DNA of 64,000 nt, from NCBI GenBank assembly GCA_964436175.1, contig CAYTBX010000001.1, positions 24,306 to 88,305 on the forward strand, written 5' to 3'. Below are positions 987-37,187 of the stretch, piece by piece; the stretch's first letter is position 1, and each line of letters starts with the position of its first letter. This DNA comes from an uncultured Candidatus Saccharibacteria bacterium. Lineage in GTDB: Bacteria > Patescibacteriota > Minisyncoccia > UBA6257 > UBA11618. The position numbers and the translations under genes were made by a program. The notes beneath the pieces are model-generated. The model had not been told where the DNA came from. It ran no database searches and saw only the letters and a list, made by a program, of their open reading frames with translations.

Positions 987-994
987 GGTGGTGC

Positions 995-11044: not shown

Positions 11045-11090
11045 GAAGCCCCGCACGCAAACGAAGCGGGGCTTCTTTTTGCGTGCGGGG
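11045..11090 (-). terminator. Rho-independent terminator for the Cys-rich gene (alternative pairings are possible)
   Basis: Minus-strand reading: gaagccccgc-ttcgtttgcgt-gcggggcttc followed by tttttttt. Confidence 0.6.
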
Positions 11091-14219: not shown

Positions 14220-14227
14220 GGCGTAGT

Positions 14228-16335: not shown

Positions 16336-16339
16336 GATG

Positions 16340-17032: not shown

Positions 17033-17042
17033 ACCGTTAATT

Positions 17043-17519: not shown

Positions 17520-17523
17520 GGTA

Positions 17524-18246
17524 TCAGGTGAACCACTTCGATTGCGGGAGCTTCGGCTTTGTCCGATCCCCTTCGGGTGCGTTCCTTGTTGTACCCGCAA
17601 TGTTAAGCGGCGTGCGTAACTGGCTGTAGTGGACTACGCGCTCGATCACGACACGCGGAGAAGCGGCGCTCTCCACGCCCGTATCCGTCTGTGGCGAGTA
17701 GCTGAAGGATCTCGCCCCGCTTTGTGCGACTGCTGCGCGCGGCTCTTCGTGTAATATAAAGGGCTGCGCGGCTGCCGGTGCGGGGGTGGGTTCGGGCGCG
17801 TTTTCCGTGGCCGCTTGTACGGGGTTTGCGGGTATCGGTGGCTGTGGCGCTGGTATGGGGCGCGGCATTGCTTCGCTCGCCGGATGCGGCGCTGTTGCCG
17901 GGGCGTTGAATCCTAAAAGAGCCGTGTTCACGCCGCCATAACGAAGTGCCGGGGCAATGGGTTCTATTATTTCTTTCGCTATTGCCTCGGTAATATTTTT
18001 AGCCAGGTCTGCGTCCGCGTTCATTTCTTTCGCGAGCTCCGCCTTAAAGCTCTCCGGCGGCAGGTCTTGCGTCACGAGGCGCAGTACTAAGAGGGGTAGA
18101 ACGCGCTCCTGCTCGTCGGACAATATAAAGCGCGCGGCAATCGCTTTAATGATTGCACTCGTGTCGTCTGAAGCGATCCATTCCTTAATCTCCGGCTGGA
18201 GCGTTTTGAATATGACGTAGAGACGGGCGATTTGTTCAAGTGTCAT
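17524..18246 (-). CDS. Hypothetical soluble protein with a Pro/Ala-rich linker
   Basis: 240 aa with no TM segment; translationally coupled to its neighbours. Confidence 0.5.
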   Translation of the reverse strand: MTLEQIARLYVIFKTLQPEIKEWIASDDTSAIIKAIAARFILSDEQERVLPLLVLRLVTQDLPPESFKAELAKEMNADADLAKNITEAIAKEIIEPIAPALRYGGVNTALLGFNAPATAPHPASEAMPRPIPAPQPPIPANPVQAATENAPEPTPAPAAAQPFILHEEPRAAVAQSGARSFSYSPQTDTGVESAASPRVVIERVVHYSQLRTPLNIAGTTRNAPEGDRTKPKLPQSKWFT

Positions 18247-21200: not shown

Positions 21201-21692
21201 GTAGGCGATTACGACGATGCCTATCGTGAACCCGAGGTTCGCGAGGTCGCGGCAGAAGCGCCAGCCGAGCTGTACGACTTCGCTATCGAGGATAGTGGTA
21301 TTGAGATAGAGACCGAACGTAACGAGGACACTCGCAAGCGTGAAAGCCGTTGAGCCGATGAAGCCGGCGATATAGCTGACGGCAAAAAGCACGTAGCCGA
21401 TACCCTTGAGGCCGATCCAGCCGATGAACGACCCGCCGATGCCGGCAGCTGCCTCTGCGATCTTAGGGACTATACCGCTTATGAGCGGTCCGGTGCCGGA
21501 CCCGGTCACCGTTTGCGCGAGCGGGATAGCGATGCTTGAGGGGATGAGTCCGCCGGTAAATGCACTGATCGCTCCGCCAGCAGCTGCTTGTCCTATTGTC
21601 GGTGCTTGCGTTTGCGCATGCGTTGAAAGCGCCGCCCCGAAAAGAAGGGTGGTTGTCGTTATCGTAAGGATTGTTTTTAGGAACTTATGCAT
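18243..21692 (-). CDS. VirB6/TrbL-like polytopic membrane protein with a roughly 550-aa hydrophilic C-terminal extension
   Basis: 1149 aa. A signal peptide and many TM helices occupy the first ~600 aa. The C-terminus has a KE-rich block (KEKQKEKKEQKEKTEKQETKVKEK), a Pro-rich block, and a ~35-aa tandem repeat (YKGPLVPPEQKPTPIPEPIKTMVERERNVNENQ / YQGPLTPPPTPVIPEPIRSFLRDEKNKNDNQ). Confidence 0.65.
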   Translation of the reverse strand: MHKFLKTILTITTTTLLFGAALSTHAQTQAPTIGQAAAGGAISAFTGGLIPSSIAIPLAQTVTGSGTGPLISGIVPKIAEAAAGIGGSFIGWIGLKGIGYVLFAVSYIAGFIGSTAFTLASVLVTFGLYLNTTILDSEVVQLGWRFCRDLANLGFTIGIVVIAYATMLGYESYGMKNLIKNFILAAVLVNFSFSIAGFLIDISNMLTNFFVNAALGGGGVAGSWEGMKQFTETLASAFNPQKLLVTSDGLQAYESLKGDGILEGILSVFFVALFTAFAALGMLMVGLTTIWRFAQLSGLIIVMPLAILCYSFPNTRSYYGKWYGKFTCQLTYLPAATFSMYIVIMFVQIKAQVGFGSSQAIDINTLLNSFEQAKGLPGGLTATRTLSLMAAPFQTITNMVLVLTMLFLGITESRNIGCAGGEIALKWAQGLKGWAIGAATGAPAWAGRKYLSGGGDGTKENNRGNQLAGFLQRIPLISRFAPQINKFAAGTSKNLGNFETEAKGMGDVQLRNAIYNPDIKLSSERMAAFAKEGVARGLLNNSDDEKNVSQEKLDEFIPALKRYGFVADILKKAPHLYSKFGLNIEKEGDEYVNKEDGKKFDDAIKAFKPEDGDDLPVEALEDLEVVRRLSGDQLAKLPKSKEHRDAFSDTIIRLREKIGSAEFDKYMGKTFAKKEAAAALTPQLLGNKDVVRNLTNDHLKYISDADKGKQRDEFLKTIDKKDAITGEYIFTEKDLSDFAKKNFSKEKDISLIHPDILRNKRIFGKLQGIHIGQLQKEPDTEQQRAVLETLRDEYLNAFADPATLARLDTLAEPIVENTTNSSWAIVRMPEGKDAFRVIETDYRLRNPDKEKQKEKKEQKEKTEKQETKVKEKGWWEDDDRGSNPPSAGPQKPPQNPPAPPDPAAGGAAAAAPTYTLAPQQPAQPVTPPPTATPQPKPAANKPQYTEPEETEPANSKGPDIGATIDEMFRKSAKQTQSETPETAKTPQAADLSEEYLASLEAATNPQPETKPAGTPVTPPELDVLVKQENERIKTEGRGWQPPEPIDAEWEPKNKIEYKGPLVPPEQKPTPIPEPIKTMVERERNVNENQISVIPKFMPADQPKRIAYQGPLTPPPTPVIPEPIRSFLRDEKNKNDNQSGQSRGTNGQNL

Positions 21693-23053
21693 CTCTGTAA
21701 TAGCGTTTGCAGTTCGGGTAGGCGCGTTGCCGAACGGGCCGTAAGGCTAGCGCGGTCTGCCTTAGTTTTTGCGGCGTACGCCTCCGCTTGCGACTTATTG
21801 ATAAGGCGGCCTACGCCCGCGGGGCCTGTCATATAGCTCGCGAGCACATCGAGGTCGGTGCTCGTTTCGTTCATGAGCGTGTTTTTGGCGTTCGTGAGAG
21901 GTGTCGTATTTTGCTGTAATTGGCTAATTGCTGTCGTAATATCCTCAAGCGCCTTTTGTTCCACGGCGAGTGCGGTTATGGTGGTCTCCCTGCCGCTCGT
22001 TCCCCTGCCAGCTTGGCAATTATTAAGTTCACTCGTTTTGTTAACGAGGGTCTGCTGCGTCGTTTGCAGGGCGAGCAAGTCCGTCTGTGCGGCTAAGAGG
22101 GGCGTTAGGGTATCTTCGATTTGCGCCATGTAGCTCACCTTTACGGCGGTCGCGTTACCCGCCTTGTATCCTTCGAGTGCGCGGCAGGCGTTTAAGGCGT
22201 CGCCCGTAAGGCCTGAGCATGGCGCGGCGTTCGTCGGTTGCCTGGGCACGTAGCCGATTTGCGGGGCGTTCGCGGATACCACGCCCTGGAAGCCGTTTAC
22301 GCCTTCGCGTATGACGCGGTTTATAAGCGCGTCTGAAATCGCGGCGATATACGCCGCCATGCTCTTGGAATTAACGATATAGTCGAGGTCGGCGCCGATT
22401 ACTTTCGCGGCGGCGGCGCCAAGCTGCATACCCGGTGTCACGATATAGCAGCGGCCGAATTCGTCGCACTTCTGTTGGCCCAAAAAGCCGTTGTTGGCCT
22501 GCACCTGCTGGTTGGCGGCGAAGCGCTTATCGGCTATGCGCGTTTCTTTTTCGTCCATGGCAAGAAGAAGCCCCCCGTAGAAGTTGTTTCGCGGTTGCCA
22601 TTGCTCGCGGTACGCCACGAAGCCGCCGGTTGAAAAGTTGGCGTAGAAGCCCGCCATATTACGCACTATTTGGTCTAAGGTGCACCGTACTTGGCCGGAG
22701 AAACGCGGTGGCTGAAGCACGGCGATTTGGAGTTGTATGCCGAAGGGTTTGCAGATGCCGGCGAGTTTCATTTCCGCGAGGATATCCCCTGTTACGATGT
22801 TGCCGTATTGCGCGAGGAACGCGTTCCAGTCCTGTATGAATAATGGCTTTCCGCCACCTTGGATCCAGTTGACCATTTGGTCAACGACCATGTCGAAAAA
22901 GCGTTTTTTTATGGTTTCTTGTATAGCTTCGGCTGCTAAGGCGACGGCGGTTTCTGCGCCGAATTGGGCGTGCGCTTGTTGTACGGGAAGCGCGGGCAAG
23001 GCGCTTATAAGGGCGAGTGCTATAGCGAGTGGGGCGAGGAAGCGGCGTTTCAT
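21677..23053 (-). CDS. Secreted hypothetical protein of the T4SS-like locus
   Basis: 458 aa with a signal peptide (MKRRFLAPLAIALALISALPA), several Cys, and a Q/T-rich helical C-terminus. Confidence 0.55.
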   Translation of the reverse strand: MKRRFLAPLAIALALISALPALPVQQAHAQFGAETAVALAAEAIQETIKKRFFDMVVDQMVNWIQGGGKPLFIQDWNAFLAQYGNIVTGDILAEMKLAGICKPFGIQLQIAVLQPPRFSGQVRCTLDQIVRNMAGFYANFSTGGFVAYREQWQPRNNFYGGLLLAMDEKETRIADKRFAANQQVQANNGFLGQQKCDEFGRCYIVTPGMQLGAAAAKVIGADLDYIVNSKSMAAYIAAISDALINRVIREGVNGFQGVVSANAPQIGYVPRQPTNAAPCSGLTGDALNACRALEGYKAGNATAVKVSYMAQIEDTLTPLLAAQTDLLALQTTQQTLVNKTSELNNCQAGRGTSGRETTITALAVEQKALEDITTAISQLQQNTTPLTNAKNTLMNETSTDLDVLASYMTGPAGVGRLINKSQAEAYAAKTKADRASLTARSATRLPELQTLLQRCISS

Positions 23054-23799
23054 TTGATCGTTTCCAGTAACTTGAGCGCGAGCATGGCGTAGATCGGGTC
23101 ATTTTCATAATCCGCAACCGCCTCGAAAATACGCTGCTTGCCGAGCGCGCGGCGGATCGCCTGCGTATACTCCGTAATGAGCGCCGGCGGCACGGCGAGG
23201 GCGCGCAGGGATGTCGCTTCCGCCTCGTAACGCTTCGCAAATATTTTCATCTGGCTTGCGACGGGGTCGTCTATGGGCGGCGGAGGCTCCGATTCCGTTT
23301 TTCCCGTAATGCTCGCGGCTGCGGCGCGGTATGCGGTAGTGGATTGTGCGTCGTCCACCGTTAGCTCCGCTTGGGTTATTTCAGGAAAGAAGTAGGCGGT
23401 ATTAAAACTCTTCATGGACTCCGTGACTGCGGCTTCCGCCATGCCGTCCGCACCCATAACGGTAAGGTTGTCCCCCACGGGCCCTTCGGGGTTTTTATCG
23501 ACGATGTTTTTACCGATGAGGGAGGCGAGGTTTGCCGTAAGGTTAGTGCTCGCGCTCACATTCGCTTGTGGGGTTGCTATAGCCGTTGTTTCAACTGGCG
23601 CTTCTGCGGTGGTCGGCACTGGTTCGCCGATGGCGTTTTGTAATGGGTCTGGTTTGCGAGCGGCTTCTATAGAACCCTCTTTTTCCGCAGTGGAATGTAT
23701 TTTATCGCGCGCGACAGTATTGCCGAACACGACAACGCCGGTGAAAATGCCCGCGGATACGAAAAACAACAGGCCTGCTTTTGCTTTGAGCCCTAACAC
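23050..23799 (-). CDS. Bitopic membrane protein with VirB8-like topology (GTG start); the first gene of the operon
   Basis: 249 aa with an N-terminal TM segment (LLFFVSAGIFTGVVVFG) and an extracytoplasmic domain. Confidence 0.45.
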   Translation of the reverse strand: MLGLKAKAGLLFFVSAGIFTGVVVFGNTVARDKIHSTAEKEGSIEAARKPDPLQNAIGEPVPTTAEAPVETTAIATPQANVSASTNLTANLASLIGKNIVDKNPEGPVGDNLTVMGADGMAEAAVTESMKSFNTAYFFPEITQAELTVDDAQSTTAYRAAAASITGKTESEPPPPIDDPVASQMKIFAKRYEAEATSLRALAVPPALITEYTQAIRRALGKQRIFEAVADYENDPIYAMLALKLLETIK

Positions 23800-23835
23800 C
23801 CTCTTAGGATAGCGCAGAAAATACGATAGAAGTTA

Positions 23836-24255
23836 GTGGATAACTGGTCATGCGAGCGCCCCAGCCGTAATCTTTTCTCGTCGGACCGTAAGCACTGCGG
23901 CAACCCGCTGCACCGCATGCAAATGCAACCTCTATCGTCGTCTAAGGCGACAGTAAAAATCGAACTCGCCCTCCGCGCGAAGCGCTGCGGAACTCACACA
24001 GCGATTTTTACTCGCCTTATTCCGCCTCTTTCGGGCATTTGCTATGCGTCTCCGCTTAGGTTGCCTTAGTGCTCACGGTCCGCCTCGTAACGCCCTAAAA
24101 AGCCTCATTTTACTAGCTTTTCAGCCGCTATGCTTGACATTTTGATAAATAAGGTGGTATTATAATATCGTGCAGTAGAGACAGTTCTTCACATGGTTTT
24201 CGGCTTAATTGCCGACCCGCTCCCACGGGTTACTCGGGAAAAAAGGAACCTTGCT
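23836..24255 (+). repeat. Copy A of a ~400-bp diverged direct repeat, a bidirectional regulatory module
   Basis: Aligns with 31515-31919 in the same orientation with short indels. It has a conserved block 1 (23836-24075) and block 2 (24131-24255), the latter comprising a promoter plus a ~85-nt leader ending in an AAGGAA SD. Confidence 0.7.
24134..24166 (+). promoter_or_regulatory. Promoter TTGACA-N18-TATTAT(aat) inside repeat copy A
   Basis: ttgaca at 24134-24139 and tattat at 24158-24163, overlapping tataat at 24161-24166. Confidence 0.5.
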
Positions 24256-24714
24256 ATGGAATCGTATCCGCTACCCAATCAGGTTTTTGAGTTGTCGATC
24301 GAAGTCCCATTCCCTGGTATTGATGTGGCGCATGCTAATGGCCATATCCATACCACATGGCGATTCGTCGGGGACGAAATTACCCAAGCAGAAACGAGAT
24401 GCTTTAAGCTCGTTTCGATCGGCGCTCAAAAAGACTTTAGCACAGCAAAGCAAGAGCTTCGTGGTCACGGATATCTGCCCCCTGCTCAATATGTTGAGGC
24501 TTTTCGGGCGAGGTTTCCCAAGAACGACAAGAAGGGGTCGATCAACGTCGGTGATTCGGTGTTTATTGATCCATGCGGTCGACCTTGCTTCGCTACGATC
24601 AGGCAGGGTAACTACATCGATCTTCAAGAGATCCATGCGGGCCCCGTCGACAATCCGAAGCCTTACTGGTTTCCCGATAGCGATCGATATCTCGTAGAAG
24701 TGAGAGACGCCTAG
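24256..24714 (+). CDS. Hypothetical protein (152 aa) expressed from the conserved leader
   Basis: The SD aaggaa lies 7-8 nt upstream. The ORF-track start at 24193 is a conserved upstream ATG that lacks an SD. Confidence 0.55.
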   Translation: MESYPLPNQVFELSIEVPFPGIDVAHANGHIHTTWRFVGDEITQAETRCFKLVSIGAQKDFSTAKQELRGHGYLPPAQYVEAFRARFPKNDKKGSINVGDSVFIDPCGRPCFATIRQGNYIDLQEIHAGPVDNPKPYWFPDSDRYLVEVRDA

Positions 24715-24764
24715 GGGGTCTAGGCACGCGAACAATCTCACGCGTAACAAAAATGAGAAACAAT

Positions 24765-24800
24765 AACCCCTTGCCGGTTTCGGCGAGGGGCTTTTCTTTT
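24765..24800. terminator. Terminator hairpin between two convergent genes
   Basis: aacccc-ttgccg-gtttc-ggcgaggggcttttcttttttt. Confidence 0.5.
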
Positions 24801-24801
24801 T

Positions 24802-25617
24802 TTAATGCGTTAGCGCGGAGATTTTTTGGATTGTTTCGATGGCGAGGTTTTCGGGGCGTTCGGTGCCGAGGAGACCAGCTTGGGTTAAGAGGGTGAGGGC
24901 TTTTTCTTTAGGGATGTTGAAGCCGTCTGCAAGGTTATTGAGAATTGTTTTGCGGGGTTGTTGAAAAAGGATGCCGACCGTTTCGTAGTAGTTCGCGAGG
25001 GCTATGCCCGTAAGTGAGTCGGCTTTGGTTTCGATTGCGATGATTGCGGAGTCGATTGAGGGTGGTGGGTTGAAGTCCGTTGGTTTTAATTTCATTGCTA
25101 TGTGCGGCGTGCCCCAGATTTGCACGCATGCGGAGAGCCTATTCATGTCTGGGGCTGTAGAGCAGATGCGCAGGGCAACTTCTTTTTGGATGGTGAAGAC
25201 GGTGCGGAGGGGTTTGTTTTGCATATCGCCTACTATGCGGAGTAAATAACCCGTGATGTAGTACGGGATGTTGCCGGCGAGGACGTAGGGCGTTTTAAGA
25301 TCCGCGATGATGGGCGCGAGGTCTTTGAGTGCGTCCCCTTCCGTGACGGTAAGGCGATCAGCTAATTCTTGGGTCGTTCCGACACTGCGGTATTTTTCTT
25401 TAAGTAGTTCTGCGAGCTCGCGATCTTTTTCTATGACGATAATTTTTTTCGCGGGCGATGCGATAAGTAAATCAGTGAGCTCCCCGTGGCCCGGACCTAC
25501 TTCAATGACGGTGTCTTCCTCGGTAATCTTTAGTGATTCAACAACTGTTAAGAGCGCCTTTTTGTTTATCAAAAAATGCTGCCCGAGGGATTTTTTTGCT
25601 TTAGGTTCGGAGTTCAT
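24802..25617 (-). CDS. rsmA: 16S rRNA (adenine1518/1519-N6)-dimethyltransferase
   Basis: LGQHFLINKKALLTVVESL...IEVGPGHGELTDLL. Confidence 0.9.
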   Translation of the reverse strand: MNSEPKAKKSLGQHFLINKKALLTVVESLKITEEDTVIEVGPGHGELTDLLIASPAKKIIVIEKDRELAELLKEKYRSVGTTQELADRLTVTEGDALKDLAPIIADLKTPYVLAGNIPYYITGYLLRIVGDMQNKPLRTVFTIQKEVALRICSTAPDMNRLSACVQIWGTPHIAMKLKPTDFNPPPSIDSAIIAIETKADSLTGIALANYYETVGILFQQPRKTILNNLADGFNIPKEKALTLLTQAGLLGTERPENLAIETIQKISALTH

Positions 25618-25776
25618 CTTTAAAATAGGCCGCAGGCGGTTTCGCGGTATTTACGAGCGAGAAACGGGATCTTTCGACGAGGAATACCGAGGTATTCCGA
25701 GGAGAAAATCGCGGTTCGCAGCCGGAAATAACCGGAAGCGGCGCGGATTTTTCCTAAGCTATTTTTAAGATGAGCT

Positions 25777-27576
25777 CTAGTCATAGTCGAGCCACATTTC
25801 TTCTTCGTCGGGCATGCCTTGGCGGTTAGCTCGATTGGACGAAACTTTATTATTTACGAATTCTACCAAGTCGCCGGATATCTCGTAGAGGAATCTTGAC
25901 GGGACGTTTGAGAACGACATATGCAAATGCTTCGCCGCGCGGGTGATGGCTACGTACATAAGCCGCCGTTCTTCCTCCATTTCACCGCCACTTGATAATG
26001 CGCGGTGGTGCGGCAAGGTGCCCTCGCCTACGCCCGCAACGAACACGCTTTCGAATTCGAGCCCCTTCGACATGTGGATGCTCATGAGGTTTACGCCCGT
26101 CTTCCCGCTCGGGTTGTCGTGGCTCTGCGCTAAGGTTGCTTGCTCTAAAAACGCAGCAAGGCCGTCTTTAGCGAAGTCGCGCGCGAAGGTGAGGAGTCCT
26201 TGTACGTTTTCAATGCGCTCCTGCGAATTCTTGTAATTGTTCTTTAAGTAATCGAGGTAGTTGGTATTCGATACGAAGTAGTCGATGATTTCGCTTGGCG
26301 ACGCGGAGCCCATTTTAGGGAGAGCGTCTATAAGGAGGCGGCTTTTGCCTTTGGAAAAGTTCTTGTCGAGCCTATCGGCACTTACGCTATCTAGCGGATT
26401 CGCCGCCAAGCGCAAGCCCGCCACGATATCTTTAATTTCTTTACGTTCGTAAAAGCGGATGCCGCCGAACATGCGGTATGGCACGCCTGCGGATATGAGC
26501 GCTTGTTCTATTGGCCGTGACTGGGCATTCGTGCGGTAGATAACAGCCATGGATTCGAGCGACTTACCCTTTCTCCAGTTCGTGATCGCCGTTTTTACTA
26601 TCCACTCCGCTTCCATATATTCGTTTTCCGCGGCGAAGACTTGTATCTTTTCGCCCTGCGCGTTTTTCGTCCAGAGGTTTTTCTTGCGCTGGGTTTTGTT
26701 GTGACCTATTACGTCGTTTGCGGCTTCCAAGATTAACGGCGTCGAGCGGTAGTTTTCTTCGAGCATGACGATCTTTGCGGCCGGCCAGTCGCGTTCGAAG
26801 TTAAGGAAGTTGCGGAAGTCCGCGCCGCGGAAGGCGTAGATGGACTGCGCGTCGTCCCCCACTACGCTTAAGTTGCCGTGGCCGCCGGCGAGGCAACGCA
26901 CGAGCTCGTACTGCGCGGCGTTGATGTCTTGGTATTCGTCGATTAGTACGTGGTCGTATTTGCCGCGGTAGAGTTCGAGTACCTCGGGGTAATTACGGAA
27001 TAATTGTACGGGCTTTTCGATGAGGTCATCGAAGTCGAACGCGTTATTTTCCTTAAGGAGGTTTTCGTAGTCCTCGTAGCAGGCGCGGGCGGTATCGGGG
27101 TCTAGGTCGCGCGTCCCTTTAGCCGCCATTTCGGGTGCTATGAATTCGCTCTTCACTTTACCCATGAGTCGCGACAATACGGCGGGGCCGCACGTCTCTT
27201 TAGGCAGGTTGCGGTTCTTGCCGATTTTTTTAAGGAGCGAGCCAGTATCGTCTTCGTCGAAGATGGTAAAGCCTACGCTGCGGCCTAAGCGGCGCGCTTC
27301 GGCGCGCAGGAGGCGTGCGCCGAACGAGTGGAACGTGCCGATGAAAAGTTCTTTCGGGGCGCCTGCGCGTTTCTTCATTTCTTCCGCCGCCTTGTTCGTA
27401 AAGGTGATAGCGAGGATGCGCGCCGGCGGCACCTTCAAGTCGTTCAAAAGATAGTGGAGACGCTGCGTAAGGGTATGCGTTTTGCCGCTTCCGGCGCCCG
27501 CAGCAATAAGGAGTGGCCCTCCCTTGTGGTAGGCCGCTTCTGCTTGCCGGTCGTTCATATTTTTGCTAGTATTCAT
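25777..27576 (-). CDS. uvrD: UvrD/PcrA-family SF1 DNA helicase (short form, 599 aa)
   Basis: AGAGSGKTHTLTQR, ILAITFTNKAAEEMKKR, VLIDEYQDIN. Confidence 0.85.
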   Translation of the reverse strand: MNTSKNMNDRQAEAAYHKGGPLLIAAGAGSGKTHTLTQRLHYLLNDLKVPPARILAITFTNKAAEEMKKRAGAPKELFIGTFHSFGARLLRAEARRLGRSVGFTIFDEDDTGSLLKKIGKNRNLPKETCGPAVLSRLMGKVKSEFIAPEMAAKGTRDLDPDTARACYEDYENLLKENNAFDFDDLIEKPVQLFRNYPEVLELYRGKYDHVLIDEYQDINAAQYELVRCLAGGHGNLSVVGDDAQSIYAFRGADFRNFLNFERDWPAAKIVMLEENYRSTPLILEAANDVIGHNKTQRKKNLWTKNAQGEKIQVFAAENEYMEAEWIVKTAITNWRKGKSLESMAVIYRTNAQSRPIEQALISAGVPYRMFGGIRFYERKEIKDIVAGLRLAANPLDSVSADRLDKNFSKGKSRLLIDALPKMGSASPSEIIDYFVSNTNYLDYLKNNYKNSQERIENVQGLLTFARDFAKDGLAAFLEQATLAQSHDNPSGKTGVNLMSIHMSKGLEFESVFVAGVGEGTLPHHRALSSGGEMEEERRLMYVAITRAAKHLHMSFSNVPSRFLYEISGDLVEFVNNKVSSNRANRQGMPDEEEMWLDYD

Positions 27577-27623
27577 GTATTAATAGCTTACGCGGAAAAC
27601 TGAATTTTTTAAGAAATAAGACC

Positions 27624-28238
27624 GTGATAACGGTTCTTTTCTTGTTGCTCGTGACCGTCACGAACGCCGTTCTTCCCGCGGCCGCGGCGCTTCAAGTTGC
27701 AGGAGCTGCGGGGCTTGGTGGTCCGTCCGCGGATTCCCCGCTTTCGAGCGCTTTCGTCGGCGCGGATTTTATTCCGTACGATGATGCTCCGCTACGTGCC
27801 GAGTCCGTAATGCATGATGCATTGGCGGAGAGTTCTGGTCAAACGGTGTATGTGGGTAACGGCATGGATATGCAAGATTTCGTGCATAGATTCTCCTTGC
27901 CCGCGCGCGGCATCAACTGGGGTATCCTCCATCAGCATAATGGGGTGGATATCGCGGGCGTCTGCGGGTCTGGCGTATATGCGGCGGCCGCGGGGCAGGT
28001 TATCGAAGTAAAGAACGGCTGGGGTGGTGGCTACGGCAACTACGTCGACATCGACCATGGTAACGGCGTTATAACACGCTATGCCCATGCCGAGTCCGTT
28101 CTCGTAAAGACGGGGCAAATGGTCGCGGGCGGCGACATGGTTGCGCGTATGGGCAATACCGGCAACTCTACCGGATGCCATGTGCATTTCGAGGTGCTTG
28201 GGCAGGCGGCGGTAACGAATCCTTTCGCAGTGAAATGA
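27624..28238 (+). CDS. Secreted M23 (LytM) family peptidoglycan endopeptidase
   Basis: A signal peptide; HNGVDIAG...GYGNYVDIDHGNGVITRYAHAES...GNTGNSTGCHVHFEV. Confidence 0.85.
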   Translation: MITVLFLLLVTVTNAVLPAAAALQVAGAAGLGGPSADSPLSSAFVGADFIPYDDAPLRAESVMHDALAESSGQTVYVGNGMDMQDFVHRFSLPARGINWGILHQHNGVDIAGVCGSGVYAAAAGQVIEVKNGWGGGYGNYVDIDHGNGVITRYAHAESVLVKTGQMVAGGDMVARMGNTGNSTGCHVHFEVLGQAAVTNPFAVK

Positions 28239-28378
28239 TGGAGACGGCTACCGGCGTTTCGCGCGGCGTCGTCTTAACGGTAGTCCTTCTTGCCTCTCTT
28301 TCGTTCGCGCTTGGCTACCTCTGGGGCAAGAGCGGGTCCGTGGTGCCTATCGTGATTGAGAAGTGCTCGGATGCGTGA
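28235..28378 (+). CDS. Possible small (47 aa) single-TM protein translationally coupled to the peptidase (ATGA overlap)
   Basis: MMETATGVSRGVVLTVVLLASLSFALGYLWGKSGSVVPIVIEKCSDA. Confidence 0.3.
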   Translation: MMETATGVSRGVVLTVVLLASLSFALGYLWGKSGSVVPIVIEKCSDA

Positions 28379-28721
28379 TAGGCTTGAATCTATATTTATG
28401 ACACACGACGATTCTAAAAAATACGAAGCTATTTTGCTTGAGTTGCAGGCTACTTTATCGAAAGAGATAAAAGACGTAATACGCGGCGGTAACGATATGG
28501 GTGAGATGGGTAACCGCGACGAGGAGGCAGACGAGACGGAAGAATCGGGAATCGCCCATGCTGAGCAGATTGCGCTGAAGGGGCGGCTGCATGCAGTGCT
28601 CGACGCCTTAGAGCGAATAAAGGTGGGAACGTATGGTACATGTCTTAAGTGTCATGCGGTAATCGGCCACGATGTGCTCGACGCCGCGCCAGAGTCCTTA
28701 TATTGTGCGGAGTGTAAATAA
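28356..28721 (+). CDS. DksA/TraR-family C4 zinc-finger protein
   Basis: C-terminal GTYGTCLKCHAVIGHDVLDAAPESLYCAECK (a CxxC-x17-CxxC arrangement) preceded by a coiled-coil region. Confidence 0.6.
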   Translation: MRSARMRDRLESIFMTHDDSKKYEAILLELQATLSKEIKDVIRGGNDMGEMGNRDEEADETEESGIAHAEQIALKGRLHAVLDALERIKVGTYGTCLKCHAVIGHDVLDAAPESLYCAECK

Positions 28722-30259
28722 TGAACGCGCGCTTTTCCCGTGTGTATTCGGGAGAACTTGCAGGTATTGATGCGCGGTGCGTGGAGGTGGAGGTCGACTT
28801 ACATGTCGGCCTCCATTCTTTTTCCATAGTCGGTTTGGCGGATAAGGCCTTGAGTGAGGCGCGTGAGCGCGTGGGTGCGGCTATTAAGAATAGCGGTGCG
28901 AAGCCCCCGTCGCAGGAGAACCGGAAGATCGTCGTAAATTTGGCGCCGGCGGATGTTAAGAAAACCGGATCCCAATACGACCTCGCAATCGCCATAGGCT
29001 ATTTAGTGGCAACGGAACAGGTGGGGAAATTTGAAACTAAAGATAAGGTTTTTTTGGGCGAGCTTGCGCTCGACGGTGGGGTGCGTGCTGTTACGGGTGT
29101 TTTGAACGTTGCATGCATGGCACGCGATAAGGGGTTTAAGGAACTTTACGTGCCGGCCGCGAATGCAGAGGAGGCGGCGCTTGCGCATGGTATCGCAGTA
29201 TTTCCCGTACGCACTCTTACGGAACTTATGGCGCACCTCGAGGGCCGCGCGCGTATATCCCCCGCAACCCACTCCGTAGATTTTTCTGCACCTGTTGTAA
29301 GCGTGGATATTGCGGACGTGCGCGGGCAGGCTTCTGCAAAACGCGCTTTGCTTATCGCCGCGTGCGGCGGCCACCATATTTTAATGAGCGGCTCCCCGGG
29401 TAGTGGGAAGACCATGCTCGCGCAAGCGTTTGCCGGGCTCTTGCCCGCGCTCACGCACGCGGAGGCGGTGGAGGTGACGCGTATTTATTCTGCCTCCGGC
29501 GCATTAGCCGGTAGGCATGCCGTAACCGAACGGCCGTTCCGTGCCCCGCACCATACGGCGTCCGCCGCTGCGGTGGTTGGTGGTGGCTCCCATCCCCGCC
29601 CTGGCGAGATTAGCTTGGCCCATAAGGGCGTGCTTTTTCTCGACGAGTTGCCGGAGTTCCGGCGCGATGTTTTGGAATCCCTACGCGAGCCGCTCGAAGG
29701 CGGGCGGGTGACTATCGCGCGCTCGACAGGTTCCTTAACGCTCCCCGCCCGCTTTATCCTCGTTGCCGCTATGAACCCGTGCCCGTGCGGTTATTACGGC
29801 GATACGCGTAAGGACTGCGCGTGCGGCGCGCATGAGATAGCGCGATACAAAAAGAAAGTTTCAGGGCCGATACTCGACCGTATCGACCTGCAAGTGCAGG
29901 TGCCGCATATAGAGCTTGCGGACTTGTCCCGCGCGCCTGTCTCACAAAGCCCAAGGGCTAGCGTGGGAGGAGATACGAAGAGTATGCGCGAAACCGTCAC
30001 GCGCGTACGTGCCGCGCAAACGGCGCGGCAGGGTGTATTGAATGGCGCACTTTCCTCTAAAAACGTTTCTGAGGGCGTCACGCTCGATGCGCTTGCGCAG
30101 GCGTTTTTCGCGAAGGTGTGGAAAAGCGCCACGCTCTCCGCGCGCGGGTATTACCGCCTGCTCAAAGTCGCGCGCACGATAGCGGATATAGAAAGCGCCC
30201 CGTCCGTTTCCGAAGCCCACGTCGCCGAAGCCTTTGCTTACCGTCTTCGTGAAAAGTAG
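28721..30259 (+). CDS. comM: ComM/YifB Mg-chelatase-like AAA+ protein
   Basis: Lon-like N-terminus IVVNLAPADVKKTGSQYDLAIAIGYL, Walker A ILMSGSPGSGKTMLA, Walker B VLFLDELPEF. Confidence 0.9.
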   Translation: MNARFSRVYSGELAGIDARCVEVEVDLHVGLHSFSIVGLADKALSEARERVGAAIKNSGAKPPSQENRKIVVNLAPADVKKTGSQYDLAIAIGYLVATEQVGKFETKDKVFLGELALDGGVRAVTGVLNVACMARDKGFKELYVPAANAEEAALAHGIAVFPVRTLTELMAHLEGRARISPATHSVDFSAPVVSVDIADVRGQASAKRALLIAACGGHHILMSGSPGSGKTMLAQAFAGLLPALTHAEAVEVTRIYSASGALAGRHAVTERPFRAPHHTASAAAVVGGGSHPRPGEISLAHKGVLFLDELPEFRRDVLESLREPLEGGRVTIARSTGSLTLPARFILVAAMNPCPCGYYGDTRKDCACGAHEIARYKKKVSGPILDRIDLQVQVPHIELADLSRAPVSQSPRASVGGDTKSMRETVTRVRAAQTARQGVLNGALSSKNVSEGVTLDALAQAFFAKVWKSATLSARGYYRLLKVARTIADIESAPSVSEAHVAEAFAYRLREK

Positions 30260-30260
30260 C

Positions 30261-30357
30261 GTGAGTGGGTAGTGAGTAGTGGGTAGTTTAAAAAACCGGC
30301 AAAAGCCGGTTTTTTAACGTCGTCGTTTCTACTCACTAACCACTACCCACTACTCAC
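30261..30357. repeat. Compound inverted repeat (about 97 nt) built from short GTGAGT/GGGTAGT-type units, enclosing a terminator core
   Basis: gtgagtagtgggtag (30272-30286) is the exact reverse complement of ctacccactactcac (30343-30357); the outer arms extend imperfectly. Confidence 0.6.
30291..30315. terminator. Perfect bidirectional terminator core
   Basis: aaaaaa-ccggc-aaaa-gccgg-tttttt. Confidence 0.7.
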
Positions 30358-30361
30358 TCGA

Positions 30362-31510
30362 TTACAATTTCAGTAGATCGAGAGCCTTCACTAATCCGTT
30401 ATTGGAAGTATTAATGATGACGTAGTCGCCGAAGATGCCGTAGCTGAAGAGCGCTCCGTCGGTTGCAAGCGAAACGAAGCGGTCGATGTATTTGTCGCGC
30501 GCTTGGCCGGTGCGGAACGTTGCGGGGGCACCAGGGTCAGCGAGAAAGAGGTTTTTGTAGGAGCTCGTCTCGACGGCTTGCAAACGGCTGGCGAGAGTCG
30601 CTGCGTCTATTTGTGAGGCAGGGTTAATTTTGGCTATATAGCCGGGCCATGCGCCGCGGTCGTCGTAAAAGAGATACGCGGAAAAGACGGGGTCGAATGC
30701 GGCGGTGAGTATTCCGTCTAAGCCGTTCGTCTTCGCTTCCGGCATAAGGGCTTCCATTACGGTAGCGAAGCTCATTGGCGCACCAGCGTTAAGTATCGAG
30801 ACTTCCGTAAGTGTGCCGCTTGCGGATTTCGTTTTTGCCGCCTCAGCTGCAAGCGCTGCAGTGATGGAGGTTGCAGTGCCATCGGTTTCAATCTTTAGTA
30901 AGCTCGCTTGCGCTCCCCCGAGCGGGGTTATCGCGGGCGCTACGGGTGTGGGTGGTGTTACTGGCGCGACGAGGCCTGCGGAGCTTGGCTCAGGTGTTAC
31001 AGCTTCTGCCGCTGCTTCTTGTACGGGCTCACTCGGCATCATGGCGCGGTATGCGGGTAGGCCGTATTTGTACGTTACCCAGCCAATGCCGACCACGAGG
31101 ATAAGCATAAAGAGCCAGAGTAAAAGCCTGCCGGATTTCATTTCGCGCACGTCGGGCATGGGCGCAGGGGCCGGCGCTGTTTGCACGGGGAACTGTACGG
31201 GTGCGGCTATGGGTGCGGATTGCACTGGTTGCGGTGGCGTTGCCATCGGCGGCGGTGGCGTAATCGGTTGCGCTACGGCTTCGCCCGTGGCTTGCATGGA
31301 GCGTATATCGCTTTCCATGGTGCGCACCATAACTTCCGGCGTAGTCGGCGGCGGCGGTACGGTGTTCGACTGGGGCGCTGCCTGCGCCTGCCCCTCGAAG
31401 CCCGAAGGGCGAAGTGGGGGCATTGGCACGCTCGGCGGTACGCTATTGTTCTGCGGCAATGTTGCGGGGTTTAATTCATCCATAGTTTTTAAAAGTATAG
31501 CATTATGCAT
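30362..31510 (-). CDS. Bitopic membrane protein with a Pro-rich cytoplasmic N-terminal region
   Basis: 382 aa with a P/Q/A-rich first ~130 aa, a single TM segment (LLLWLFMLILVVGIGWV), then an extracytoplasmic domain. It is transcribed divergently from repeat copy B. Confidence 0.55.
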   Translation of the reverse strand: MHNAILLKTMDELNPATLPQNNSVPPSVPMPPLRPSGFEGQAQAAPQSNTVPPPPTTPEVMVRTMESDIRSMQATGEAVAQPITPPPPMATPPQPVQSAPIAAPVQFPVQTAPAPAPMPDVREMKSGRLLLWLFMLILVVGIGWVTYKYGLPAYRAMMPSEPVQEAAAEAVTPEPSSAGLVAPVTPPTPVAPAITPLGGAQASLLKIETDGTATSITAALAAEAAKTKSASGTLTEVSILNAGAPMSFATVMEALMPEAKTNGLDGILTAAFDPVFSAYLFYDDRGAWPGYIAKINPASQIDAATLASRLQAVETSSYKNLFLADPGAPATFRTGQARDKYIDRFVSLATDGALFSYGIFGDYVIINTSNNGLVKALDLLKL

Positions 31511-31514
31511 GGCT

Positions 31515-31919
31515 GTGGATAACTAAATTGCTCGCAAACCCTTCGTGCCGCGGCAACCCGTTGCGGCGTATGCAAATCCGGCCTCTCTCGTCGTAAAAGC
31601 CGACAGAAAAAATAGAACTCGCCCTTGTCCGCCTGCGGGCGGACTGCGGAACTCAAACAACAATTTTTTCTCGGCTTTTATCTCCTCCTTCGGGGATTTG
31701 CTATCCGCCTCCACTCAGGTTGCCTTAGCACGAAGGGCTTGCTTCACCCCATCCAAAACTTTCAAAAAAAGCTTTATTTAAAGGCATTTCAGTGCATTTA
31801 CTTGACAAAGTAGTACTTAGGGTGGTATTATAATAACGTGCAGTTGAGACAGTTCTTCACATGGTTTTCGGCTTTTGCCGACCCGCTCCCACGGGCTACT
31901 CTGGAAAAAGGAATGTAAG
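31515..31919 (+). repeat. Copy B of the ~400-bp diverged direct repeat, a bidirectional regulatory module
   Basis: Block 1 at 31515-31745 and block 2 at 31800-31919 match copy A; see the main finding. Confidence 0.7.
31802..31834 (+). promoter_or_regulatory. Promoter TTGACA-N18-TATTAT(aat) inside repeat copy B
   Basis: ttgaca at 31802-31807 and tattat at 31826-31831. Confidence 0.5.
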
Positions 31920-32275: not shown

Positions 32276-32481
32276 AAAATTATGACACGCAAAAAAAGCC
32301 GGCGTGGATATGCTTATCGGGAACATCTCGGAGGCGGCGTAGCTCTGGGCACCGCCTTTTTAGGCGGTTGCGCCGCTGAGAGCGAGGGAAGTTTTTTCGC
32401 AGGAAAAAAACTATCCCGTTTCCCGAGAAGTATATGCGCGCCGGCTTTTAAATATCCCCTACGGATAATCCGTAACGCTTT

Positions 32482-36572: not shown

Positions 36573-37055
36573 TTATGCCAAAAATAATATAAGGATGGTC
36601 GTTACGATGGAGGTTGCCGTAAGGGCGAGGGCTACGCGGAGGGCGTGGTATTTGTTGTGCGCCACTTTCGCTAAGTTGTAGGCGTTGTTATAGAGGGCTT
36701 TCGCGACATCGTCGTCCGTAAGCGCCATGCCGGTTTTGATATACGTTTCTTTTTTATACGCCGCAATGCTTTCGAAATACGTCATATCCCCCTTCTCCGG
36801 CTTGCCGCCGCGCGGGTAGATAACGGTAATGACGCTTTTGAGCGCTACGAGTATTAAAAGTACGGCGACGGCGAATACTGCACCCCACATCGGTGTTGCT
36901 CCCCCGCTCGCCTTGATAGTGTTGATGCGTGTAAGAAGCGCAGCGGTCGAGATACCTAAAACATACAACGTGGATACCGCCTTCGCGTCCGCCTGCTTTA
37001 TCAAGTCCGCAATCTGCCCCGCAGAGAATTTAGCGAAATCATTTTGTGCTGCCAT
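36573..37055 (-). CDS. Small 2-TM (plus a C-terminal hydrophobic helix) membrane protein, SLATT-like effector architecture; a speculative assignment
   Basis: Start taken at the internal ATG (MAAQNDFAKF...). An N-terminal amphipathic helix; TM1 STLYVLGISTAALLTRI; TM2 MWGAVFAVAVLLILVALKSVITVIY; a ~70-aa soluble segment; then a terminal hydrophobic helix ALRVALALTATSIVTTILILFLA. Confidence 0.45.
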   Translation of the reverse strand: MAAQNDFAKFSAGQIADLIKQADAKAVSTLYVLGISTAALLTRINTIKASGGATPMWGAVFAVAVLLILVALKSVITVIYPRGGKPEKGDMTYFESIAAYKKETYIKTGMALTDDDVAKALYNNAYNLAKVAHNKYHALRVALALTATSIVTTILILFLA

Positions 37056-37061
37056 ATATGT

Positions 37062-37090
37062 AGTATAACAAACTCGAAAATCGAAATCCG
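37062..37090. repeat. Four tandem 7-bp TCGAAA-type direct repeats in the divergent promoter region
   Basis: actcgaaa-atcgaaa-tccgaaa-ctcgaaa, lying between the starts of the two divergent unknown genes. Confidence 0.45.
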
Positions 37091-37187
37091 AAACTCGAAA
37101 CAAAAATATGGACAATTTATAAAAAACAGCGTATTGTAGTGACGGCTCTTGCCTATCATCAATCACACGTATTTCAGGAGATTTGTC

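Follow-up and report, generated by a model that had tools for sequence, protein, structure and literature searches.

Rod-shaped RNAs of ~215 nt, not previously described as a family, are the likely basis of a diverged intergenic repeat in Harrisonbacteria-like Parcubacteria

Conjugation-type T4SS clusters are found near oriC in Patescibacteria, and most of these clusters lack a relaxase (PMC12102498); separately, a bidirectional promoter geometry has been described in which positions -7 and -11 of two opposed -10 hexamers coincide reciprocally (PMC10268837). Our locus lies in the window (the whole 64,000-nucleotide stretch of DNA analyzed), where a monoderm-type T4SS-like operon at 11795-23799 carries PrgI, VirB4/TraG P-loop, TrbL/VirB6, and T4SS-pilin domains. 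A sequence-only reading of this DNA had reported two diverged direct copies with short indels, at 23836-24255 (copy A) and 31515-31919 (copy B). MAFFT confirmed that the copies are co-linear with short indels, and blastn aligned them at 75.8% identity over 368 nt (E = 4e-67). Each copy comprises a left part, block 1, and a right part, block 2, which holds a promoter and a leader; a 27-nt leader pattern occurs twice in the window versus 0 occurrences expected, and a full covariance-model scan with filters off returned exactly two copies of block 1. Both copies are noncoding, and block 1 has no reading frame that stays open across it in the two copies. A search of Rfam yielded no family matching either copy. 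The two copies are supported as a shared, selected noncoding module in which a promoter and a DnaA-box-like 9-mer accompany an RNA-level element (Table 1).

Table 1. Coordinates of features of the two repeat copies and their flanking genes in the window.
Feature	Position	Strand	Details
First gene of monoderm-type T4SS-like operon	23050-23799	-	Downstream of RNA copy A; GTG start
-10-like hexamer TATCCT	23806-23811	-	6 nt before GTG (23799) of first T4SS gene
DnaA-box-like 9-mer TTATCCACT	23835-23843	-	1 mismatch; 30 nt downstream of RNA copy A end
Structured RNA, copy A	23874-24093	-	~215-nt rod; covariance model (CM) R1, 230.7 bits on minus, 31 on plus
AT-rich linker, RNA to block 2 -35	24094-24133		Weak A-tract/hairpin/T-tract, AAAAGC...GCUUUUU
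Block 2 promoter, copy A	24134-24167		TTGACA 24134-24139, N18, TG-TATTAT 24158-24163 (plus)
Leader, copy A	24170-24255	+	Hairpins 24200-24215 (tcggc/gccga) and 24216-24229 (cccg/cggg); AAGGAA SD; gene start 24256
Orphan gene, 152 aa	24256-24714	+	Putatively driven by block 2 copy A; no Pfam match
Pro-rich membrane protein gene	30362-31483	-	Downstream of RNA copy B
Extended -10 TGCTATACT	31494-31502	-	Ends 10 nt before ATG 31483 of Pro-rich gene
Perfect DnaA-box consensus TTATCCACA	31514-31522	-	5 nt downstream of RNA copy B end
Structured RNA, copy B	31528-31752	-	~215-nt rod; CM R1, 237.6 bits
Block 2 promoter, copy B	31802-31835		TTGACA-N18-TG-TATTAT plus reciprocal TATAAT
Leader, copy B	31838-31919	+	Hairpins 31868-31881 and 31882-31895; 20-codon uORF from 31861; gene start 31920
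Orphan gene, 87 aa	31920-32183	+	Putatively driven by block 2 copy B; no Pfam match

The folded strand of block 1 is the minus strand of the window, opposite to the block 2 leader. Copy A alone folds with a minimum free energy of -108 kcal/mol (z = -6.4) on this strand, reproducing the consensus fold, versus -93 kcal/mol on the plus strand. In copy A, basal helices of ~25 bp lead into middle helices and a purine-rich internal loop; the basal stem is formed by CCGUGAGCAC/GUGCUUACGG in copy A and by CCCUUCGUGC/GCACGAAGGG in copy B. The rod also contains an invariant helix (AAGSCGAG-A5-6-U against A-U5-6-CUGUCGSCUU), the conserved loop strands UGARU and GAGUU, and a variable apical hairpin. The sequence-only reading had noticed a block 1 hairpin with entirely different stems in the two copies; the stems do vary, but this hairpin is only the apical stem of the ~215-nt minus-strand rod that spans block 1. 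Covariation in block 1 is far above controls. For nine copies aligned with MAFFT only, the RNAalifold consensus contained 62 pairs, of which 22 show double changes, and 95.1% of cells paired versus 37 to 44% when partners were slid. Among the 22 complete copies, 96.2% of cells pair (slid controls, ~40%) and 40 of the 62 pairs carry double changes, pairing and double-change values that 0 of 500 shuffles reached. The apical segment folds as a hairpin in all 22 copies with about seven different stem sequences, and 11 of the 16 pairs of helix P5 never vary. G·U and U·G cells outnumber A·C and C·A cells 92 to 17, and the wobble pairs U37·G209 and G97·U149 are nearly invariant in the 22-copy alignment, which shows selection on one folded strand; both the sequence and the fold of block 1 are shown to be kept by purifying selection that acts on the single strand. 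Structure-preserving variation had originally been assigned to the ~85-nt leader of block 2. Both leader hairpins were found as claimed and are conserved in four homologues, but none of their nine pairs shows a compensatory change across these four, with changes limited to the loops and to G-C to G-U replacements; the covarying structure is that of block 1.

CM R1 finds 25 copies scoring 108 to 239 bits (22 of them complete) in Harrisonbacteria/Parcubacteria metagenome-assembled genomes and in groundwater or lake metagenomes, and none in the 2.9 million viral contigs searched. Scanning relatives with a covariance model thus recovered the further homologous copies, and with them covariation beyond chance, on which the earlier proposal of a shared element had been made to depend. 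Each of these Harrisonbacteria-like ultra-small CPR/Patescibacteria carries two to three copies. RNA copy A shares 85% identity with L012a and RNA copy B shares 88% with its L019 orthologue, whereas the two RNA copies of the window are only 73% identical to each other; proteins flanking these orthologues are 60 to 86% identical, and in L060 the RNA is retained upstream of the first T4SS gene, though that protein is only 42% identical. These comparisons show two to three old paralogues per genome at conserved intergenic sites in the oriC-proximal T4SS region, and the rod family is previously undescribed. Syntenic sites lie upstream of the first T4SS gene (eight loci), virB4 (L012c, L040, and L050), the Pro-rich membrane protein gene, mraZ (L041 and L038), and lexA, and the synteny of the T4SS operon is kept in L007, L009, L011, and L012. 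Over its initial ~45 nt, the first T4SS gene is almost invariant at synonymous sites. The association with T4SS genes proposed from the window alone was thus borne out, but nothing ties the element to comM, the M23 peptidase, or uvrD, which lie between the copies and had been assigned to its regulon; the recurrent neighbors are the minus-strand genes directly 3' of the RNA, in relatives also mraZ and lexA. The start of the Pro-rich gene, given earlier as 31510, is most likely 31483 (MDELN...), as in all orthologues and the L001 gene call.

Copies within a genome are sometimes more similar to each other than to positional orthologues (L012c is 85 to 87% identical to L012b and L011b but 79% identical to L040), which suggests gene conversion or reinsertion. 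Such similarity would suit a DNA-level domesticated palindromic repeat or cassette boundary (MITE/ERIC/Correia-like, or the flank of a "minimal mobile element"), with small orphan genes exchanged by recombination and the RNA hairpin a by-product that at most stabilizes or processes neighboring transcripts. The element is multicopy and intergenic in every case, and in L012, L040/L061, and L050 a unit of ~1 kb, made up of a terminator, an orphan gene, the block 2 promoter, the RNA, and the box and accompanied by further conserved noncoding pieces, lies between a traC-like gene and virB4; these two genes abut, with no such unit, in the window, L009, and L011. The block 2 genes are different orphans in each genome, the diverged copies L030 and L035 sit directly against a gene whose 3' end resembles that of XerC/D-type tyrosine recombinases (judged by eye from LGH..TT..YTH in reverse translation), and in L058 the element upstream of the T4SS operon is reduced to its 3' half, so that the RNA is either dispensable there or decaying. 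We nevertheless consider a DNA repeat unlikely: the wobble excess and nearly invariant wobbles indicate selection on one strand, the element is better conserved than flanking proteins that are only 42 to 60% identical at orthologous positions, two to three copies per genome are few, the one filled-versus-empty comparison shows no target-site duplication, and viral contigs yielded no copies.

As a whole, the block 1 copies are best explained, with somewhat better than even confidence, as members of an undescribed ~215-nt minus-strand rod RNA family of Harrisonbacteria-like Parcubacteria. The RNA would be a unit of its own and not the 5' leader of the next gene, a view that rests on the DnaA-box-like 9-mer and the -10 hexamer between RNA and start codon, placed as for leaderless or very-short-leader mRNAs. 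The 9-mers of both copies were as first described, one perfect and one with a single mismatch, and a TT[A/T]TCC[A/C]C motif lies after the RNA in 19 of the 19 copies whose downstream gene is co-directional. This motif is missing in the five copies that face a convergent gene or contig end, and it lies on the gene side in L024, where the RNA is flipped relative to the gene. The first six bases of the copy B box can serve as a putative -35, 17 nt before TATACT. The hexamer before the first T4SS gene (TATCCT, TATTCT, or TACAAT) keeps its 6-nt distance to the GTG in seven of seven orthologues, which predicts a leaderless mRNA; the extended -10 TGCTATACT of the Pro-rich gene is conserved in L011, L012, L013, and L019, and no SD sequence precedes the ATG at 31483. 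In L041, a full TTGACC-N17-TATACT promoter separates the RNA from mraZ, and a -10 hexamer lies close to the start codon in the co-directional copies inspected. With a -10 in this position, the RNA is probably not the 5' leader of the downstream gene.

A cis-regulatory 5' leader, transcribed from upstream and acting on RNA polymerase or translation of long operons (T4SS, mid-operon virB4, mraZ/dcw), either as a riboregulator or by processive antitermination like EAR, put, and ops, would account for the 19 of 25 copies that lie ~45 to 160 nt upstream of a co-directional gene start. It would also fit the great length of several downstream operons (the 12-kb T4SS operon; mid-operon virB4 in L012c, L040, and L050; mraZ in L041 and L038) and the near-invariant synonymous sites at the start of the first T4SS gene, which would suit a regulatory 5' region. 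This reading is unlikely in view of the conserved -10 located 6 to 17 nt before start codons with no SD sequence, the complete promoter in L041, the flipped L024, and L023, L030, L035, and L039, which face convergent genes. The Pro-rich gene, moreover, is monocistronic; the rod has no multiway junction, terminator, or SD-sequestering platform; and the energies of duplexes that the RNA could form with mRNA 5' regions are within the range of shuffled controls.

For an independent RNA, the block 2 promoter is the most likely source of transcription in the window. The TTGACA-N18-TATTAT promoter claimed by the sequence-only reading is present in both copies with an upstream TG and scores 11/12, as for a strong sigma-70 promoter. 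In copy A, the minus strand carries a perfect TATAAT at 24164-24159 with -7 and -11 of the two hexamers coinciding reciprocally; this matches the arrangement in PMC10268837, making block 2 a candidate bidirectional promoter, and TATTATA is conserved in L007, L012, L019, and L023. The RNA would be transcribed leftward from this symmetric -10 (TATTAT plus, TATAAT minus), and the same promoter would drive the hairpin-containing leader and an unrelated orphan gene rightward. Relatives that lack block 2 have the RNA directly behind the pnp or ksgA stop codon or behind a tRNA; there it may be cotranscribed and released by processing at the ~25-bp basal helix. Invariance of the A/U helix and of the loop strands (UGARU, GAGUU, and the purine-rich bubble) may point to sequence-specific protein recognition, and as a best guess we propose a regulatory RNA, stable and bound by a protein, with a 3' boundary that would be set at the DnaA-box promoter. 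If so, upstream transcription would be tied to box-controlled T4SS, envelope, division, and SOS promoters. Against this proposal, a promoter scan returned no consensus minus-strand promoter upstream of either window copy, the leftward TATAAT has no convincing -35, and no partner protein or base-pairing target of the RNA was found. The half copy in L058 and the similarity of copies within one genome also count against it. In several relatives, moreover, a terminator-like hairpin with a T-tract separates the RNA from the block 2 promoter and would oppose leftward transcription into the RNA; the motif is clearest in L019, with the shape of a bidirectional terminator, and a terminator scan of the window did not call the linker at 24094-24133.

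Positions after pnp, ksgA, or a tRNA, favorable for cotranscription with a housekeeping gene and processing, are also what a lineage-specific 6S-like RNA might occupy, a rod that binds RNA polymerase by mimicking an open promoter. The shape is suggestive: the rod is ~200 nt long, is closed by a long stem, ends in a terminal stem, and has G-C pairs on either side of a ~13 x 13-nt internal loop. The window yielded no canonical 6S RNA; it covers only a small part of the genome, however, and one may lie elsewhere. As Rfam 6S models gave no match even at E <= 10, two to three copies cluster at specific promoters instead of one, and the diverged subgroup has not kept the bubble sequence, we regard this identity as very improbable. 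Equally remote is a strand-specific single-stranded DNA hairpin of the T4SS-like/competence machinery (oriT-like, single-strand-origin-like, or an Frpo-like ssDNA promoter) with the 9-mer as nick or recognition site. The nearby conjugation-type T4SS, a strand-specific hairpin with a conserved 9-mer abutting its base, and the unusual conservation of helix sequences such as P5 would all fit, and DNA tolerates G·T wobbles. Yet most Patescibacteria T4SS clusters have no relaxase, and none was seen among the window genes in a partial scan; copies also precede mraZ and lexA or lie between unrelated convergent genes, at three per genome, and in L024 the 9-mer tracks the neighboring gene and not the hairpin strand. 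By eye, there is no -35/-10 pair inside the stem, and in several copies the GCGA/GAGC basal flanks would allow tandem G·A pairs, which are more typical of RNA.

On the plus-strand side of block 2, copy A has the upstream ATG in frame with its gene, and in copy B this ATG opens a 20-codon uORF ending in ATGA, both as originally described. The uORF peptide is not what is conserved, as had been argued, with L019 lacking the ATG altogether (CCAATAT for CACATGG). The small genes that follow, likewise reported as unrelated, are orphans encoding a different protein in every genome.

Copies A and B align co-linearly with short indels (blastn, 75.8% identity over 368 nt, E 4e-67), bearing out the direct repeat that a sequence-only reading of this DNA had described; a repeat finder recovers blocks of both copies as its families D2, D3, and D6, and a 27-nt pattern from the leader occurs exactly twice in the window against zero expected. 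Each copy comprises block 1 (~230 bp) and block 2, a promoter with its leader on the plus strand before a small orphan gene. A covariance model (CM) scan with filters off and pattern searches of the window found exactly two copies of block 1; a further CM match of 21.6 bits is merely a long terminator-like hairpin. Six-frame translation of both copies gave stops in every shared frame, and block 1 was rejected as a gene. Rfam 15 gave no matches across the whole window at gathering thresholds, and at E ≤ 10 the two copies drew chance matches alone, to eukaryotic lncRNA and sRNA models, in agreement with the earlier statement that no known riboswitch could be recognized. A search for known RNA genes found no tRNA or tmRNA genes, and literature searches turned up no RNA motif reported for T4SS loci of Parcubacteria or Patescibacteria. 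Coordinates are collected in the table below; after the T4SS-like operon the gene order is ksgA, uvrD, M23 peptidase, comM, Pro-rich membrane protein, and pnp, followed by a gene encoding an NYN-domain protein, by rpsO, and by a gene for an S1-domain protein.

Positions of the features discussed, in the window and on contigs of relatives
Feature	Contig	Position	Strand	Remarks
Candidate independent ncRNA	window	979-1222	+	TTATCCACG at 979-987
dnaN and dnaA	window	6466-9185	-	
Three DnaA-box matches	window	7626-7782		in the dnaA-dnaN spacer (206 nt)
Second conserved non-coding element	window	10875-10999	+	inverted at about 32320-32349
Rejected CM match	window	11036-11100		
Monoderm-type T4SS-like operon	window	11795-23799	-	PrgI, VirB4/TraG P-loop, TrbL/VirB6, and T4SS-pilin domains
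Start of first T4SS gene	window	23757-23799	-	GTGTTAGGGCTCAAAGCAAAAGCAGGCCTGTTGTTTTTCGTAT
Copy A	window	23836-24255		
DnaA-box-like 9-mer, copy A	window	23843-23835	-	TTATCCACT
Block 1 RNA, copy A	window	24093-23874	-	
Block 2 -10, copy A	window	24158-24163	+	TATTAT; reads TATAAT at 24164-24159 (-)
Copy B	window	31515-31919		
DnaA-box-like 9-mer, copy B	window	31522-31514	-	TTATCCACA
Block 1 RNA, copy B	window	31752-31528	-	
197-aa ORF	window	36573-37166	-	
PD-(D/E)XK nuclease gene	window	37945-38796		
173-nt direct repeat	window	40415-40587 / 44588-44760		
Match to second conserved element	L012	17928-18053		94% identity over 126 nt
Match to second conserved element	L019	5878-6013		77% identity
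Extended rod	L039	2140-2480		CGCGAAGTGCGGACCGTGGAGTACG / CGTACTCCACGGCACGCACTTCGCG
GTGG-type repeats	L041	~1060-1200		
Half element	L058	560-1030		upstream of the T4SS operon

Related contigs are titled Candidatus Harrisonbacteria and Parcubacteria group, and L030-L050 came from groundwater of the Hainich wells. Contigs of relatives were chosen via homologues of the first T4SS gene, ranging from 37% to 100% identity. By blastn, block 1 is present at both syntenic positions in these relatives, with a third copy before virB4 in L012. The covariance-model scan that the sequence-only reading had envisaged did return further copies in relatives, and after CM R1 was built and DNA pattern scans were run on genome and metagenome collections, the total came to 25 copies, 22 of them complete. 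Pattern matches from these collections in Bacteroidales, Thermoguttaceae, Treponema, and others fail the CM and are chance matches; two pattern scans of viral contigs likewise gave chance matches only, all failing the CM, and a phage origin was rejected. Copy A is 85% identical to the first copy on L012 (L012a; letters denote separate copies on one contig) and copy B 88% identical to that on L019, against 73% between A and B; positional orthologues are usually closer to each other than paralogues are, and the exceptions suggest gene conversion. In L060, whose first T4SS protein is only 42% identical, the element is still found upstream of the T4SS operon. L058 is a natural disruption, in which the 3' half of the element and the box after it are kept and the 5' half is replaced by AT-rich palindromic sequence.

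A MAFFT alignment of nine copies, in the orientation of the window's minus strand, contains obvious compensatory changes, such as CCGUGAGCAC/GUGCUUACGG in copy A for CCCUUCGUGC/GCACGAAGGG in copy B, and RNAalifold predicts from it one long rod of 62 pairs, 22 with double changes. In this alignment, which was fitted to no model, 95.1% of cells pair, compared with 37-44% when the partners are slid, and none of 500 shuffles reached the observed covariation score. Over the 22 complete copies 96.2% of cells pair (slid controls, ~40%), double changes occur in 40 of the 62 pairs, and 0/500 shuffles match any measure, in an alignment that was fitted to the CM and is hence biased toward structure. When MAFFT was applied to all 22 copies, a diverged subgroup (L011a, L030, L039, and L035, which has two copies) was aligned wrongly in its basal half, and RNAalifold then recovered the central helix only; we therefore rely on the nine-sequence alignment as the check independent of the CM. 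Heavily covarying basal helices of ~25 bp lead through two middle helices and a purine-rich internal loop of ~13 x 13 nt to a near-invariant helix, AAGSCGAG-A5-6-U / A-U5-6-CUGUCGSCUU, in which 11 of 16 pairs never vary, and then to a variable apical hairpin flanked by the invariant loop strands UGARU and GAGUU. The apical segment folds as a hairpin in 22/22 copies with about seven different stem sequences. The diverged subgroup keeps the central helix and apex and differs in its basal half; in L039, ~25 further base pairs enclose the rod, so the hairpin is extended in that copy.

The minus strand is the folded strand: G·U or U·G fills 92 cells versus 17 for A·C or C·A, two wobble pairs are nearly invariant among the 22 copies, and the minus strand folds with the lower minimum free energy (MFE), -108 kcal/mol versus -93 for the plus strand. 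Block 1 is a new, narrowly distributed, covariation-supported structured element acting on one strand. It most likely works as RNA, because its G·U pairs are conserved, tandem G·A pairs may form at its base, and its placement is suited to co-transcription; a hairpin of single-stranded DNA is a very improbable form for it.

Repeats of a more familiar kind must also be weighed. ERIC/IRU, Correia, REP/BIME, and MITE-like elements are intergenic palindromic repeats that fold as RNA hairpins, and block 1 is like them an imperfect palindrome on the 100-200-nt scale, found solely between genes and in either orientation, often co-transcribed with its neighbors and sometimes travelling with promoters. 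Unlike them, it has a very low copy number, keeps orthologous positions across deeply diverged relatives, and shows strand-specific covariation with conserved G·U pairs; no terminal-repeat signature of the MITE/ERIC kind was seen at its copies. A repeat of this sort without strand selection is contradicted by the G·U to A·C ratio and the conserved wobbles. An element domesticated from such a repeat, or one marking a cassette boundary, is a different matter, and one we consider unlikely. A unit of ~1 kb, comprising a terminator, an orphan gene, block 2, the RNA, and the box, lies between a traC-like gene and virB4 in some lineages and is missing in others, and no target-site duplication was visible at the one filled-versus-empty junction compared. 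The orphan genes behind block 2 are different in every genome, with no Pfam family and no mutual similarity, as had been said of the two window proteins; if the element were a cassette boundary, it would mark where genomes swap small orphan genes.

6S RNA (RF00013 and lineage-specific families), which binds the sigma-70 holoenzyme and templates pRNA, is likewise a rod of ~200 nt whose 5' and 3' ends pair in a long closing stem, with a large internal loop, a terminal stem, and possible maturation from longer co-transcripts. Block 1 differs in having several paralogues per genome at specific promoter-proximal sites and an invariant A/U-rich helix. The 6S shape is a rod of ~180-200 nt with a large central bubble between closing and terminal stems; in the predicted rod of block 1 the purine-rich loop would take the place of the bubble, and its sequence is not conserved in the diverged subgroup. 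No 6S covariance model matched either window copy even at E ≤ 10. Identity with a 6S-like RNA is something to which we give very little credence.

The RNA copies lie upstream of the first T4SS gene at eight loci and of the Pro-rich membrane protein gene at five, sites that are orthologous in all relatives. Others precede virB4 (L012c, L040/L061, and L050), mraZ (L041 and L038, assigned from the N-terminal sequence and GTGG-type repeats at 10-nt spacing), and lexA (L034, by Pfam). Some directly follow the pnp stop codon (L011b, L012b, and L013) or ksgA (L009 and L011a), and one follows a tRNA (L041). The RNA is flipped relative to the neighboring gene in L024 and faces convergent genes in L023, L030, L035, and L039.

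After the RNA, TT[A/T]TCC[A/C]C occurs in 19/19 copies with a co-directional downstream gene, usually at a distance of 1-7 nt (30 nt in copy A), and is absent from the five with a convergent gene or a contig end ahead of them. This 9-mer tracks co-directional genes and, with the flipped RNA of L024, lies on the gene-facing side; it therefore belongs to the promoter side. Both window sites fit the DnaA-box consensus TTWTNCACA and are as first described, perfect in copy B and with one mismatch in copy A. DnaA acts as a transcription factor and also as a roadblock (PMC11317965), and the resemblance to such systems lies in a 9-mer matching TTATCCACA/TTTTCCACA at the upstream edge of the post-RNA promoters and in the clustering of the same motif between dnaA and dnaN; the difference is that each RNA-associated site has a single candidate box. 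The motif also stands before other promoters of the window, at 979 and before dnaN. With three box matches in the dnaA-dnaN spacer and a turn of the cumulative GC skew near 4-6 kb, the replication origin probably lies at this spacer, ~16 kb from RNA copy A. In L031 and L038, TTATCCCC fits an MraZ-type GTGG box as well as a DnaA box, and in L041 and L038 GTGG(G/A)(G/T)AA repeats follow downstream of the RNA at 10-nt spacing, which we take to be the arrangement of MraZ boxes; the 9-mer could therefore belong to a regulator other than DnaA. These repeats lie between a TTGACC-N17-TATACT promoter and a gene starting MFIGEYQ (mraZ-like), and they overlap the DnaA-box consensus in sequence.

Between the 9-mer and the start codon is a -10-like hexamer, 6-17 nt before the start across genes: in seven orthologues of the first T4SS gene, TATCCT, TATTCT, or TACAAT precedes the GTG by exactly 6 nt; in the Pro-rich gene, TGCTATACT precedes the ATG by 10 nt; and in L041 the full TTGACC-N17-TATACT promoter separates the RNA from mraZ. 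Unlike the block 2 genes, the post-RNA genes lack an SD sequence. From these features, the T4SS, Pro-rich, and mraZ mRNAs are probably leaderless or very short-leadered, with window starts predicted at about 23799 (T4SS) and about 31485 (Pro-rich), and the RNA would not be the 5' UTR of the genes that follow it. Copies co-directional with a downstream gene could be read as a 5' leader or antitermination element, a role that seems improbable to us. The position of a riboswitch or leader is not found, given the predicted -10 elements so close to the starts, the L041 promoter, and the flipped and convergent copies, nor is an expression platform, as there is no T-tract after the rod and the downstream genes lack an SD. 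Structured regulatory RNAs are known upstream of monoderm or F-type conjugation operons, namely the prgQ leader and Anti-Q of pCF10 and the traJ leader and FinP, and block 1 shares with them a place beside a divergent promoter, directly upstream of PrgI/VirB4-type T4SS genes. Unlike in those systems, neither an antisense partner nor an overlapping counter-transcript was seen, a promoter seems to separate the RNA from the T4SS gene, and copies also occur at mraZ, lexA, and non-T4SS sites. Duplexes of the RNA with the two downstream genes' 5' regions, and with the block 2 leaders, had energies within the range of shuffled controls. As a separate observation, the opening ~45 nt of the first T4SS gene are nearly invariant at synonymous sites even where the protein is only 42% identical, which suggests nucleotide-level constraint or a start codon further downstream.

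Block 2 carries in both copies the TTGACA-N18-TATTAT promoter initially reported, within the 16-18-nt sigma-70 spacing, matching at 11/12 positions and extended by an upstream TG. The promoter lies beside the RNA in L007, L012a, L019, and L023 as well (regex search), and a similar one was seen by eye in L012c, L035, L040, and L050. The two leader hairpins are present in copies A and B, and the upstream ATG is in frame with the gene in A and opens a 20-codon uORF ending in ATGA in B, all as first noted. Both hairpins are kept only in the window, L019, and L023, and across four homologues 0/9 leader pairs have a double change and two have G-C to G-U changes, so the proposal that the leader is kept as a structured RNA is not supported. 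The sequence-only reading is confirmed in its observation and partly supported in its interpretation.

A consensus sigma-70 promoter of the RNA's own was not found immediately upstream, in a scan of the window copies and on inspection of the flanks in relatives. The -10 of block 2 is symmetric, and its reciprocal -7/-11 arrangement on both strands makes it a candidate bidirectional promoter. According to the account of Warman et al. (2021) in PMC10268837, bidirectional sigma-70 promoters with a symmetric -10 have start sites 18 bp apart; block 2 resembles those described there in its reciprocally paired -7 and -11 and differs in lacking a convincing -35 on its leftward face. Transcription that began leftwards near 24152 or 31820 would give the RNA a 5' extension of ~60-70 nt; against it stand the weak leftward face and, in some relatives (L019), a terminator-shaped hairpin in between.

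We favor a self-contained, processed RNA that would bind protein and lie directly against DnaA-box-type promoters. The copies make up a new orphan family of structured RNAs in CPR bacteria, with links to promoters of T4SS, envelope, division, and SOS genes. To our knowledge, Patescibacteria have tiny genomes, few recognizable regulators, and almost no characterized non-coding RNAs, and an RNA of >200 nt with strong covariation and several copies against such promoters offers a testable handle on gene regulation there; the CM provides a means of annotating the family and seeking partner proteins. In Patescibacteria the T4SS-like machinery is thought central to the epibiotic lifestyle. T4SS clusters adjoining dnaA, mostly without a relaxase, have been described for the group (PMC12102498). 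More speculatively, and we regard this as distinctly unlikely, the RNA, the abutting candidate DnaA box, and the leaderless promoter could act together as a single switch, particular to ultra-small CPR bacteria. In it, upstream transcription would end at a DnaA-occupied box, a point marked by the rod, and the state of DnaA, hence of replication or the cell cycle, would pick between a polymerase that stops and releases a stable regulatory RNA and one that continues through and thereby occludes the leaderless promoters of T4SS, envelope, division (mraZ), and SOS (lexA) genes. Such an RNA-plus-initiator regulon would couple replication to host-contact machinery and explain mechanistically why T4SS genes are reported to cluster beside dnaA; a functional link between RNA and DnaA box, if proven, would make the finding highly interesting, and otherwise it is moderately so.

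Other elements of the window were recorded in passing. In the candidate independent ncRNA, the box-like motif is followed by TTGACA-N17-TGCTATACT and a non-coding stretch of ~175 nt; the multi-branched fold has a 21-bp closing stem and then a U-tract (MFE, -78.3 kcal/mol; z, -7.4), and Rfam returns nothing for it even at E ≤ 10. The second conserved non-coding element, which combines a terminator-like hairpin with a long-range stem (CCCUAAUA...UAUUAGGG), recurs inside the traC/virB4 insertion of L012 and just after pnp in L019, and is conserved far better than the neighboring proteins. The 197-aa ORF matches the Pycsar effector transmembrane domain (PF18967, E 1e-12) and may, with the PD-(D/E)XK nuclease gene beside it, form a small defense locus. 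The two copies of the 173-nt direct repeat (72% identity) fall within paralogous P-type (heavy-metal) ATPase genes on either side of a multicopper oxidase, and reflect ordinary gene paralogy.
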